Shown here: positions 18,999-22,015 of the stretch, piece by piece
Position numbering within the stretch: position 1 is the stretch's first letter
How the letters are laid out: the number at the start of each line of letters is the position of its first letter
DNA from: Candidatus Thorarchaeota archaeon
GTDB lineage: Archaea > Asgardarchaeota > Thorarchaeia > Thorarchaeales > Thorarchaeaceae
DNA: 54,279 bases
Direction: 5' to 3'
Assembly (NCBI GenBank): GCA_038893995.1
Contig: JAWAQK010000009.1
Coordinates: 1 to 54,279 of the forward strand
Notes under the pieces: model-generated
What the model was told of the DNA's origin: nothing
Database searches by the model: none
The model's input: the letters and a program-made list of their open reading frames with translations, nothing else
Program-made: the position numbers and the translations under genes

Positions 18999-19421
18999 TC
19001 AGGTGACCTTGTGCAGGACGACCACCTTTACCCCGTCAAGGTTCTCTAGGCTCTTCTTGAGTTCATCAAGCGATACGACGATCTGCTCGGGCGAGAAGTA
19101 GCACTCGTAGAAGCACCTAGTGCCTCTCAGACATACTCCCGTAGAGAATAGTAGGTCCACGAGCCCGACGTTTCGGAAGACCTGAGAGAGCCTCGTGAGA
19201 AAGTCGTTTGTGAGCTTGCCTATCTCTACGGATAGGAAATAGACATCATCTGTCTGAATTGGATACACCTTGATCTGTTTGTCCTTATACACCATGACCA
19301 TGAGACCGGCCTTTGTCCCCAGCGCCTCTACAAACTCTGCTGGGATCGTTGGCGGCTTACTCCCATCAAACAGCAGAAGGCGACCCGCTGTCGCACCCTC
19401 ATAATGCTCGTAATCTGTCAT
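18999..19421 (-). CDS. Hypothetical protein, possible AbrB-like N-terminus plus ACT-like C-terminus
   Basis: TIPAEFVEALG (AbrB-like). FLTRLSQVFRNVGL...LDELKKSLENLDGVKVVVL has an ACT-like pattern. Confidence 0.6.
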   Translation of the reverse strand: MTDYEHYEGATAGRLLLFDGSKPPTIPAEFVEALGTKAGLMVMVYKDKQIKVYPIQTDDVYFLSVEIGKLTNDFLTRLSQVFRNVGLVDLLFSTGVCLRGTRCFYECYFSPEQIVVSLDELKKSLENLDGVKVVVLHKVT

Positions 19422-19563
19422 TGGCAACACAGCCCTGGTCGTCGGTTCAGACTCCAGCTTCAATAGGATTGAGATGCAAATAAATCTCTCTGGTCTAGAT
19501 TGCACCTACGGAAGAAACTAGTGGTGTTCATCTGGTAGTGCGCCTGACATACCATGGGTCGAC

Positions 19564-19791
19564 TTGACTACACATACGATCAGAAGAGTATCGGACCTTC
19601 GCATTCAGCACATGTGTGAGTATCGATATGTGCTGATGAAGATGATTGGAGAAACCGACAGCTGTCTTGCATCGGCTGGAAGCGAGTTGCATGGGATGGC
19701 TGCGTCTAGACCTCGCCATCAGACTCCAGTCTTGCCCTGGATCCTGATGGCGGCCCTGATGGCCCTCGTGACCTGCATGCTACTTGGATAA
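19564..19791 (+). CDS. Small protein: Cas4-like N-terminal segment plus C-terminal TM helix
   Basis: VSDLRIQHMCEYRYVL...AGSELH matches the Cas4/AddB N-terminal motif. It ends in hydrophobic VLPWILMAALMALVTCMLLG. Confidence 0.7.
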   Translation: MTTHTIRRVSDLRIQHMCEYRYVLMKMIGETDSCLASAGSELHGMAASRPRHQTPVLPWILMAALMALVTCMLLG

Positions 19792-19817
19792 CGTGGAGTG
19801 GGGGGAGCGAACAGAGA

Positions 19818-20468
19818 ATGGATGTCCTATCTATCATCACCCTGCTACTTGTGGCTATACTGGTGATACTTGCCTGGACAGAATACATGGAGATACTCAA
19901 TCTCAGGGAGATCATTGTGAAGTCGACCTCTGTTGAGATGAGCCCAGTCTCATTTGTTGAACAACACGGTCAAGAAACTGAACTTGGTCGGTATCTCTCC
20001 TTTCATGAACAGCCTGTTCAATCGATAGTCAACAGAATCGCGGGCATACCAGACTCCGTCTACATGCACATCAAGGACAGACCTGTTGTCGATATCGTCG
20101 TCGAGAGAAAGTACCCGAGTCGATCCTTGCCGAGGAAAGCATACCCAGAGGACGTGTTTCAGGCATCACTATATGCGCTCGCGCTCTCAGACAATGGGAT
20201 GGACTGCCGCCAGACAAGACTAGCCCTCATCTACTGTCTTCAGGACCGTGCCAGACGGTGCATGTCAGGTGAGCGAAACCTGTGCATAGGGTGTCGATAC
20301 GGCAGGGTGTTCATATCGTCCTTCAATCGAGAACGGACGCTGTCTGACCTCCTCAGACTAGACGAGATATGGTTCCGAATGAGAACACCAAGACCTAGCT
20401 CGAGAAAGGATACATGCGCGAGATGCCCCTACTCAGACCGCAGGGTCTGTCCATACTCTAGGGCGTAG
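19818..20468 (+). CDS. Membrane-anchored Cas4-like PD-(D/E)XK nuclease (C-terminal part; not CRISPR-associated here)
   Basis: N-terminal TM, IAGIPD, VVERK, QASLYAL and C-terminal CARCPYSDRRVC. Confidence 0.82.
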   Translation: MDVLSIITLLLVAILVILAWTEYMEILNLREIIVKSTSVEMSPVSFVEQHGQETELGRYLSFHEQPVQSIVNRIAGIPDSVYMHIKDRPVVDIVVERKYPSRSLPRKAYPEDVFQASLYALALSDNGMDCRQTRLALIYCLQDRARRCMSGERNLCIGCRYGRVFISSFNRERTLSDLLRLDEIWFRMRTPRPSSRKDTCARCPYSDRRVCPYSRA

Positions 20469-20509: not shown

Positions 20510-20923
20510 ATGGACGACCTAGAGGAGTTCCTCACGAGCATTGTCAACGCGAAGAGAAAACTGAAGATGATATACTATACTGGCCGAAACTCCGATCAGA
20601 GGAACGACGCCAAGGAACTCATTGCATTCCTAATCGAGCTGGGGACAAAGGCAGACCGACTGGTCCAGATCACGAGTGAGTCTCCAATTGCAAGGAAGCT
20701 CATGAGCGACAGGAAGGCAGAGCTGGAGCTGCATAGGTGGTCACAGGGACTCCTCAATAGGACATCTGACTACGTCAGCAAGGCAAAGGACCTGTCGTAC
20801 GAACATGCCCACCGCTATCAGTTAGTGATGATGGAGTACTTGGAAACGATAGAGTCCGAACTCTCGAAGTGGATCGAGGAGATAGAAACAGCCACGGGAG
20901 TTCCCCGCCCCCCAAAGGACTGA
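20510..20923 (+). CDS. Hypothetical helical protein
   Basis: 137-aa ORF with coding-like composition, co-directional with the Cas4-like genes; no family recognised. Confidence 0.7.
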   Translation: MDDLEEFLTSIVNAKRKLKMIYYTGRNSDQRNDAKELIAFLIELGTKADRLVQITSESPIARKLMSDRKAELELHRWSQGLLNRTSDYVSKAKDLSYEHAHRYQLVMMEYLETIESELSKWIEEIETATGVPRPPKD

Positions 20924-20938
20924 TTTCGGATATGGCTC

Positions 20939-22015
20939 CTACCATCTGAGCCTTGCAGCAATGCCACCAAATGCCTTCAACTGGGCGCCAGACTCGGTCT
21001 GGGTTGAGAAGACCAGCAGTTCTGTTCCATACTTGTCAACATCGTCGACCACCTGATCGAGTAGTGGCGAGTCCTCGAGGATCATCAACGTGGCGACCCG
21101 ACCATCCCTGAGGGCGTTCAGCACCTCATCCTTGCCATATGTCACGGTCTGCATGCCCTTCATCAGGTCCTGCATGAACTGGTCCCATGCCTCACGCTCG
21201 GCGTAGATCTCGGTCTCCCTGAGAATCCTCGACGCCTCCTTGACCGCCTCGTAGAGACCAGTTTCGTCGACCTCGCCGATAGGGAGGATCTTCTCAGCAA
21301 CCTTCTCGCGCAGTCGATAGTCCAGCTCTCCCTTCTCCAGGAACTCTTGCGCTCGGATCGTGTTCCCACCCACGACTATCGCATCGACCTGGTCAAGCTT
21401 GTCAAGAAGAAGCTGGTTCAGGGTGCTTCCTGCATGCCGGTAGAACTCCAGCATCTTCTCATCCCGAATACGCTCGTACCGACGTGCACTCTGTCCTCCC
21501 GCACGAGTCTTGCCCATTATGTAGAAGTCCTCATCAACCACCATCTCGAGATGCTTGCCTCTCAGATAGCCCACAGTCAGTTTTCCACCCTCGATCAGGA
21601 CTATGACGACCATGCTCTTTGGTTGGACCATTCCCTCTAGCTCCCCGGTCACGAACTCACGTCCACAGATGTACAGATACTGTGTGATCGGCGCTGGAGG
21701 GACCACGATCTCTCGGATCTCGGTGTTTGTACCGCCCTCCTCCAGGATCCCGTAGAAGAAGGCGATACCCGTCGGCGGTAGTTCCCTTATCTTCGTGAGC
21801 TCGTTGAGGATGGCCGTGAGGTTATCGATCACGTTCTTGCGGTTGGCCTTGCTCTTGATGTTCTCGGCGCCTGCGATCTCTGTCCTCAGAAAGGTCATAA
21901 CATCGGTCAGACTCTTGTAAGGAGGAATGTACAGAGTCGTGAAGGAACTGTGTCTCCCCTGTAGTCCCTTGAGATACGCTATCTTCTTCTTGAGTTGATG
22001 TCGAGTCATCGTCAT
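20939..22015 (-). CDS. prf1: Peptide chain release factor aRF1
   Basis: NIKS, YxCxxxF (YICGREF) and GGQS motifs; C-terminal AFGGIAARLRW. Confidence 0.93.
   Translation of the reverse strand: MTMTRHQLKKKIAYLKGLQGRHSSFTTLYIPPYKSLTDVMTFLRTEIAGAENIKSKANRKNVIDNLTAILNELTKIRELPPTGIAFFYGILEEGGTNTEIREIVVPPAPITQYLYICGREFVTGELEGMVQPKSMVVIVLIEGGKLTVGYLRGKHLEMVVDEDFYIMGKTRAGGQSARRYERIRDEKMLEFYRHAGSTLNQLLLDKLDQVDAIVVGGNTIRAQEFLEKGELDYRLREKVAEKILPIGEVDETGLYEAVKEASRILRETEIYAEREAWDQFMQDLMKGMQTVTYGKDEVLNALRDGRVATLMILEDSPLLDQVVDDVDKYGTELLVFSTQTESGAQLKAFGGIAARLRW

Follow-up and report, generated by a model that had tools for sequence, protein, structure and literature searches.

Can a DNA nuclease be assembled from two chains that are each pinned to the membrane? 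The question is raised by two adjacent genes, here called open reading frame 1 (ORF1) and ORF2, in a stretch of 54,279 nucleotides from Candidatus Thorarchaeota archaeon (family Thorarchaeaceae; assembly GCA_038893995.1, contig JAWAQK010000009.1, positions 1 to 54,279 of the forward strand), which is referred to below as the window. The original prediction, made from the sequence of the window, was that the two genes encode one Cas4-like iron-sulfur nuclease in two membrane-tethered pieces, as if a transmembrane hairpin had been cut in its loop. The present analysis points the same way. ORF1 and ORF2 are probably two subunits of a single [4Fe-4S] DNA nuclease of the EXO5/Cas4 clan, with a PD-(D/E)xK core and with a membrane helix on each subunit at the site of the cut. 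The conservation of the split, purifying selection on both genes, colinear mapping onto single-chain relatives, the pattern of charges around the helices, and a model of the complex all argue for this. The architecture is apparently an undescribed variant of a known enzyme clan.

The two proteins match successive parts of single-chain EXO5-like nucleases. In Cas4, EXO5, AddB and Dna2 the fold is held together around a [4Fe-4S] cluster by four cysteines of one chain, one near its N-terminus and three near its C-terminus, and to our knowledge all of these nucleases are soluble enzymes. The single-chain relatives of the pair are 226-280 residues long and reach the Pfam cut-offs for Exo5 and PDDEXK_1. 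Alignment with hhalign places residues 8-48 of ORF1 on residues 45-85 of these relatives (probability 96%, E 1.5e-9) and residues 73-216 of ORF2 on residues 122-270 (probability 99.6%, E 1e-23). Their invariant columns are shared out in order between the two chains: Q..C-E falls on Q15, C18 and E19 of ORF1 and G...H on its G39 and H43, while G..D, E.K, Q...Y and C..C.....C fall on G76 and D79, E96 and K98, Q115 and Y119, and C200, C203 and C211 of ORF2. The single-chain profile matches human EXO5 at E 7.6e-19 and the Cas4 protein SSO0001 at E 2.5e-4, and residues 45-85 align to the human EXO5 segment V-T-D-L-A-T-Q-N-W-C...G-A-S-I-H. The [4Fe-4S] ligands of human EXO5 are C92, C356, C359 and C365, and its activity is mostly lost without the cluster (PMC12004521). 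The C92 motif aligns with C18 of ORF1, and the C-x2-C-x5-C motif of EXO5 aligns with C200, C203 and C211 of ORF2. A passage of PMC13621843 cites His62 of SSO0001 as an active-site metal ligand; judging from the motif, H43 of ORF1 would be its counterpart and likewise a metal ligand. The pair together holds every defining residue of an EXO5/Cas4-type nuclease.

The order of these motifs, D-L-x-x-Q-x-x-C-E, G-x-x-x-H, G-x-x-D, E-x-K, Q-x-x-x-Y and C-x2-C-xn-C, is that of EXO5 (PF09810; human PDB entries 7LW7-7LWA) and of single-chain archaeal and bacterial relatives such as P0023, P0024 and P0039. In contrast to EXO5, which is a single soluble chain, the pair consists of two polypeptides with a membrane helix on each at the cut. 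It also differs in the spacing of the C-terminal cysteines (x7 instead of x5), in scoring below the Pfam cut-off, and in being confined to one Asgard family.

The motifs are conserved among distant homologues. Both genes lie where they had been placed and carry the motifs ascribed to them: R-V-S-D-L-R-I-Q-H-M-C18-E-Y-R and later G39-S-E-L-H43 in ORF1, and G76-I-P-D79, E96-R-K98, Q115...Y119 and C200-x2-C203-x7-C211 in ORF2. L12, Q15, C18, L24, G39, L42 and H43 are invariant among the 20 aligned ORF1 homologues, and D79, E96, K98, Q115 and Y119 are unchanged in all 21 aligned ORF2 sequences. Identity to the window proteins is 24-40% for ORF1 homologues and 31-37% for ORF2 homologues, so motifs that are invariant across these sequences are not due to chance. 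Pairwise ratios of nonsynonymous to synonymous substitution rates (omega) have a median of 0.32 for ORF1 and 0.11 for the ORF2 core, indicating purifying selection on both; they come from 24 usable pairs, some of which are duplicates of the same genomes. The coordinates of the features are collected in Table 1.

Table 1. Features of the two-gene nuclease locus and its downstream neighbour, in window coordinates
Feature	Coordinates	Strand	Description
ORF1	19564..19791	+	75 residues, TTG start; putative tail-anchored N-terminal nuclease piece (from the ORF listing and homologues)
ORF1 soluble core, residues 8-44	19585..19695	+	R-V-S-D-L-R-x-Q-x-x-C18-E-Y-R helix; G39-x-x-L-H43
ORF1 C-terminal transmembrane helix, residues 56-74	19729..19785	+	Predicted from hydropathy; a single residue follows the helix
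Intercistronic spacer	19792..19817	+	26 nt, purine-rich, with Shine-Dalgarno-like GGAG/GGGGGGAG
ORF2	19818..20468	+	216 residues; predicted signal-anchor helix and PD-(D/E)xK core
ORF2 N-terminal transmembrane helix, residues 3-21	19824..19880	+	Predicted N-out / C-in
Catalytic motifs G76-x-x-D79, E96-x-K98, D112, F114-Q115-x-x-L118-Y119	20043..20174	+	Invariant in 21 sequences
Extra cysteine cluster C140, C148, C156, C159	20235..20294	+	Invariant in 21 sequences; candidate second metal site
C200-x2-C203-x7-C211	20415..20450	+	Invariant; the three predicted Fe-S ligands from ORF2
ORF3	20510..20923	+	137 residues, helical bundle (model pLDDT 92); downstream neighbour

The window copy is an outlier of its family. 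It has GIPD where 20 of the 21 homologues have GR[FA]D, a TTG start codon, a TAA stop without the usual GGTGA, and the shortest ORF1 among the 20 aligned. Its gap between the two genes is the largest among 41 loci. It still keeps every invariant residue.

ORF2 has more conserved cysteines than had been noticed. The three C-terminal cysteines of the original prediction are present and invariant, but the invariant total in the 21 sequences is seven, and these form two clusters and not one. The additional cysteines, C140, C148, C156 and C159, are a candidate second metal site, which may hold zinc or an iron-sulfur cluster. A four-cysteine insert is found at the same position in the nearest single-chain relatives (P0023, P0024, P0030 and P0055).

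The assignment of the pair as Cas4-like was right as to the fold and the motifs, but sequence profiles lie nearer to EXO5. The AlphaFold2 model of ORF2 has a predicted local distance difference test (pLDDT) value of 87. Its best fold match is a Cas4 domain, 7MI4 (VIA Z 10.8, root-mean-square deviation 3.4, 141 residues aligned), within an overall range of Z 7.4-10.8 that includes MGME1 (9.4), EXO5 (8.3), and AdnAB and SSO0001 (both 7.8). Foldseek matches the model to 8D3L at E 5.5e-5. The fold alignments start from residues 52-63 of Cas4 and from about residue 146 of EXO5, so what is missing from ORF2 is exactly the N-terminal part to which ORF1 is similar. Among sequence-profile matches of ORF2 to the PDB, EXO5 is the best (7LW7, E 0.0017), while the ORF1 profile gave chance matches only. 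Pfam has no hit for either window protein. Its Exo5 model matches one of the 21 ORF2 homologues at E 0.23, and its Cas4 model matches two of them at E 0.023 or weaker. The link to EXO5 is seen by profile comparison only. Judged by these profiles, the family is nearer to EXO5 (the PF09810 lineage) than to CRISPR Cas4.

ORF1 and ORF2 are real, separate, translationally coupled and conserved genes. They lie on the same strand in different frames, with the ORF2 start codon an ATG, and the spacer between them holds the Shine-Dalgarno-like signals that had been predicted there. Of 24 genomes sampled from the same family, 21 have one ORF2 homologue each, with 34-43% identity, and in 20 of these 21 related genomes an ORF1 homologue lies directly upstream with its stop codon at the start of ORF2. 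At the species level the split layout is present in 55 of 57 Thorarchaeota loci, and a fused form was never seen among them. The frame offset from ORF1 to ORF2 varies: among 46 scored loci it is +1 in 23 and +2 in 22, and in one the two are in frame with a stop between them. Overlapping junctions such as TGATG, TAATG and ATGA are common. Of 41 loci, 35 have the ORF2 ATG at -4 to +5 nt relative to the ORF1 stop, and 22 of 42 have a final ORF1 codon that, with a TGA stop, gives GGTGA, a Shine-Dalgarno core. Many species have a stop in the ORF2 frame within a few nucleotides of the ORF1 stop.

Public protein collections show the same division. Gene callers report the two families as separate proteins: 66 ORF1-like proteins of 75-147 residues (nearly all 76-105), of which every named one is of Thorarchaeota type, and 75 ORF2-like proteins of 143-254 residues. 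All of the ORF1-like proteins are called hypothetical, and so are the ORF2-like ones. When 1.84 billion representatives were searched exhaustively with the profile, 20 members were found at E<1e-30, none of them longer than 252 residues, and the next matches start from E 7e-9. A protein search restricted to longer proteins found no fused or longer form of ORF1 and ORF2.

The two proteins are predicted to dock. A complex prediction from both alignments scored 0.83, and the best control scored 0.00. Of 80 solved complexes, 58 reach this mark of 0.83, as do 2 of 110 mismatched pairs, although the halves of a split gene can pass such a test through their likeness to solved single-chain structures of Cas4 and EXO5. 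Agreement between the runs is 84% of contacts or more, and the partner has a pLDDT of 68 or more. The confident interface lies between residues 5-47 of ORF1 and residues 63-76, 79, 97, 99, 109-122, 140-149, 177-194 and 199-213 of ORF2. Within it, residues 12-25 of ORF1 contact residues 199-213 of ORF2, so that the helix with C18 is modelled against the three C-terminal cysteines, and the stretch of ORF1 with H43 is modelled against the D79/E96/K98 site. ORF1 also contacts residues 140-149, within the region of the extra cysteines. ORF1 is therefore both conserved and, in the model, docked onto ORF2. The pairing of the two membrane helices, which was also looked for, was not confidently predicted.

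Both chains have a predicted membrane helix at the end where the nuclease is cut. The terminal helix of the window ORF1 is 19 residues long with a mean Kyte-Doolittle hydropathy of 2.4, and the helix of ORF2 has a mean of 2.8. The predicted hydropathy is kept across the homologues. All 20 ORF1 homologues have a 19-residue mean of 2.2-3.5, and in each of them the helix is followed by only 0-3 residues, none of them charged. A hydrophobic helix at the extreme end of every homologue suggests that ORF1 is tail-anchored. In ORF2 the AlphaFold2 model has a helix at residues 3-35 with a pLDDT of about 94. Summed over the 21 homologues, the 0-7 residues preceding the ORF2 membrane helix contain no lysine or arginine and 14 aspartates or glutamates, while the 15 residues past it contain 62 lysines or arginines and 11 aspartates or glutamates. 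This positive-inside pattern suggests that the N-terminus of ORF2 is outside and the nuclease core inside. No twin-arginine signal is present in the ORF2 N-termini. Both soluble parts are predicted to face the cytoplasm, and the predicted layout is a transmembrane hairpin cut in an outer loop of near-zero length.

These features suggest how the enzyme might be assembled. ORF1 would insert as a tail-anchored protein, with its cytoplasmic N-terminal domain providing the cluster ligand C18 and the histidine H43. ORF2 would insert with its N-terminus out and its C-terminus in, and would provide D79, E96, K98, Q115, Y119, the three cluster cysteines and the four-cysteine site. The chains would then dock, with a [4Fe-4S] cluster bridging them through C18 of ORF1 and C200, C203 and C211 of ORF2, and H43 of ORF1 would complete the active site. 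An active enzyme would form only where both chains meet, at the cytoplasmic face of the membrane. By analogy with its relatives, it may act on DNA whose 5' end is free and single-stranded. The tether would confine activity to DNA near the membrane, away from the bulk of the chromosome.

Some observations weigh against this reconstruction. The window proteins score below every curated family cut-off. Neither membrane helix is within the confident part of the modelled interface, and helix pairing is therefore neither supported nor refuted by the model. The pair is cleanly absent from genera g13 and g15, which keep the surrounding genes, and it is decayed or interrupted by insertions in genus g4.

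The pair is restricted to the family of the window. Of its 85 genomes, 70 gave strong matches; 315 genomes from elsewhere in the phylum gave none. The pair is nearly always present as a single copy; it keeps its synteny and is inherited vertically, a distribution not typical of a defence island. Single-chain EXO5-like proteins occur in other Asgard families (40 of the 315 genomes), and a hydrophobic helix is absent from the nine of these that were examined. When the single-chain profile was run against the 85 genomes of the window's family, every match was the size of ORF1 or of ORF2, so no full-length EXO5-like paralogue was seen there. Three N-terminal-only matches of 74-75 residues in other Asgard genomes are all at contig ends. 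The short proteins among 76 representative matches look like fragments and have no starting membrane helix. No second, independent origin of the split layout was seen in this check of other genomes, which was not exhaustive. In family f9 (loci L097, L099 and L101-L103) single-chain EXO5-like domains are found in open frames of 540-560 residues; that of L097 has an N-terminal nuclease domain and a C-terminal extension of about 290 residues of unassigned nature.

Several genomes have lost or damaged the pair. G003 retains only the first 46 codons of ORF1 (L082 2874-3011) and has lost ORF2. In G018 and in the species of L052, ORF1 is missing its N-terminal half and directly adjoins the 3' part of a TnpB-type (IS605-like) gene at that gene's end (L012 1-600, L052 2400-2950), and in G018 the lost half was found on another contig. 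In G397 about 8 kb separates ORF1 from ORF2. Judging from these relatives (loci L012, L052, L087 and L114), genus g4 seems to be losing the pair. Loss or damage in several lineages shows that the pair is dispensable.

What the enzyme does can be stated only tentatively. The role that we favour, as a possibility, is the processing or destruction of linear DNA that is entering, or in contact with, the membrane. There is a bacterial precedent. SNIPE (PD-lambda-1) of E. coli is a membrane-bound anti-phage nuclease that cuts incoming phage DNA, and its anchor keeps the nuclease from the chromosome, preventing self-damage (Saxton et al. 2026; PMC13190303). ORF2 is like SNIPE in having a short outside N-terminus, one membrane helix and a cytoplasmic nuclease, as predicted from its charge bias, and the idea of a membrane tether that limits a nuclease to DNA at the membrane is common to both. 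SNIPE is unrelated in fold and differs in being a bacterial single chain, with DUF4041 and GIY-YIG domains, that has been shown to act against phage, whereas ORF2 has the PD-(D/E)xK fold and is known from its sequence. A precedent with the same predicted layout makes a role in defence or uptake reasonable. There are also points against such a role. No relatives of the pair were present on the viral contigs searched, and a defence library gave only weak Cas4 matches (PADLOC Cas4, E 3.4e-6). Single-copy, vertical inheritance and housekeeping-type synteny are more in keeping with a housekeeping enzyme than with a typical defence gene. A viral or mobile origin of the pair was considered and rejected, since there are no viral-contig relatives and no meaningful PHROG match.

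The same two-chain machine could instead have a housekeeping role, as the only EXO5-like enzyme of the lineage, in repair, replication restart or end resection at membrane-attached DNA. The single-copy, vertical distribution in fixed synteny among housekeeping-type genes favours this, and so does the lack of a full-length paralogue in the 85 genomes. The single-chain relatives are found in ordinary, non-defence contexts, and EXO5 itself works in repair and in restarting replication (PMC12004521). However, the pair has been lost without replacement in several genera, and the single-chain EXO5-like genes are patchy in the other Asgard genomes, which suggests that the function is not essential. 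A housekeeping role also gives no reason for confining the enzyme to the membrane. It is a possible role, though a doubtful one, and the two roles are held with roughly equal and in each case limited confidence.

Other explanations of the locus are much less probable. The hydrophobic helices might be a soluble zipper that joins the two chains and not membrane anchors, and the complex model does place them without confidence. However, the segments are 19-22 residues long, lie at the extreme termini, and have a hydropathy of 2.1-3.5 in all homologues but one (an ORF2 at 1.5). Their strict positive-inside pattern is a signature of membrane insertion and not of a coiled coil, and a zipper is improbable.

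Programmed frameshifting or stop read-through could join the two frames into one polypeptide with an internal transmembrane hairpin. The genes are contiguous, and both ORFs share a frame in the one scored locus noted above and in two of the 21 relatives, where they are parted by a single TGA. However, no single mechanism or slippery site could serve all of the frame offsets, ORF2 has its own ATG and Shine-Dalgarno-like signal, and in the window 26 nt separate the genes. There is very little chance that this explanation is correct.

It is similarly hard to credit the pair as a CRISPR adaptation Cas4 that acts in trans with Cas1-Cas2 encoded elsewhere. The weak matches to NCBIfam cas4 (TIGR00372, E 1.4e-4) and to PADLOC Cas4, the top fold score to a Cas4 domain, and the Cas4 label that JGI gives to some homologues would agree with it. 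The prediction that the pair stands apart from CRISPR is borne out within the window, where neither cas genes nor a tandem repeat array occur, but it does not extend to the genome as a whole, in which other contigs carry two Cas1-Cas4 modules. Each of the two Cas1 genes is beside a canonical Cas4 (contigs C48 1088-2405 and C72 6442-7776), so the split pair is not the CRISPR Cas4. The pair is never beside cas genes in the loci examined, its profiles group with EXO5-like proteins, and the score of ORF2 against TIGR00372 is 21.7 bits where the cut-off is 65. The genome also has one further solo Cas4-like gene (contig C41 21617-21961).

Least credible of all is that the split reflects a frameshift introduced in sequencing or assembly, or the decay of what was once one gene into a pseudogene: the window copy is the most divergent and its ORF2 frame is, as had been pointed out, open upstream to 19710, which is 108 nt before the ATG and overlaps the end of ORF1, so that one indel would fuse the two, but the same split in independent species assemblies with varied frame offsets, conserved start codons and Shine-Dalgarno-like signals, omega below 1 and no fused form among all of the representatives searched together exclude an artefact, decay or uniform recoding for the family.

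Compared with Cas4 (PF01930/TIGR00372; 4IC1, 8D3L and 7MI4), the pair has the same fold, catalytic motifs and one-plus-three cysteine logic. In contrast to Cas4 it is split, predicted to be membrane-anchored, unlinked to cas1, cas2 or an array, and below the family cut-offs. It resembles the solo-Cas4 and pfam12705 proteins of Hudaiberdiev et al. 2017 (PMC5704561), which are stand-alone nucleases of the Cas4 clan outside CRISPR loci with roles unassigned. The words 'transmembrane' and 'split' are absent from the main text of that paper (PMC5704561). A full-text search of the literature, including the main Cas4 phylogenomics paper, found no description of a membrane-anchored or split Cas4 or EXO5.

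The genes around the pair are conserved in order: inositol-phosphate synthase, CpXC, a VTT/DedA membrane protein, a 168-residue gene, ORF1, ORF2, ORF3 and a convergent aRF1-like gene. ORF3 adjoins the pair in all 21 relatives, with a mean column identity of 59%, and is found in 75 of the 85 family genomes and in the sister family. It has no Pfam or PHROG match and no fold match below E 0.1, and its protein-atlas matches are uninformative. Genera g13 and g15, G003 and the sister family have ORF3 without ORF1 and ORF2, and ORF3 is therefore not counted as part of the nuclease system. The aRF1/eRF1-like protein (20939-22015, minus strand) is short, at 358 residues, and has all three eRF1 domains and the GGQ motif; its gene is convergent with ORF3 in fixed synteny, including in the sister family (locus L083). 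The 168-residue ORF (18999-19505, minus strand) probably starts at an ATG at 19421 (M-T-D-Y-E-H-Y-E-G-A-T-A-G), and its relatives have 141-146 residues. It has a weak MazE/AbrB-like match, and every relative examined keeps it in synteny with the VTT/DedA, CpXC and inositol-phosphate synthase genes. An upstream MFS transporter gene is present in several relatives and absent from the window, and was regarded as incidental.

The position of the cut suggests a further, more speculative function for the membrane. Residues 107-131 of EXO5 (alpha-4) fold over the DNA channel and unfold when DNA enters (PMC12004521). By a residue count made by hand, the cut between G..LH and the core is at or just after this segment, so the membrane helices may help to close the channel. 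It is conceivable, though rather unlikely, that the cut and the helices replace the channel-closing segment, that the membrane itself and the shared iron-sulfur cluster close the channel, and that the enzyme gates DNA at the membrane during virus injection, transfer or uptake. If so, the enzyme could assemble around, or thread, DNA that crosses or touches the membrane, and its assembly would be sensitive to iron or redox state through the cluster shared between subunits.

If the two-chain reading is correct, the cluster and probably the active site of this nuclease are divided between two membrane-pinned chains, and it would be the first membrane-tethered member of its clan. The division would provide a natural test of the part that the cluster plays in assembly as opposed to catalysis. 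The enzyme would be an Asgard analogue of bacterial membrane-bound nucleases such as SNIPE. The pair is a family-wide trait of Thorarchaeota, and its products are at present annotated as two hypothetical proteins.

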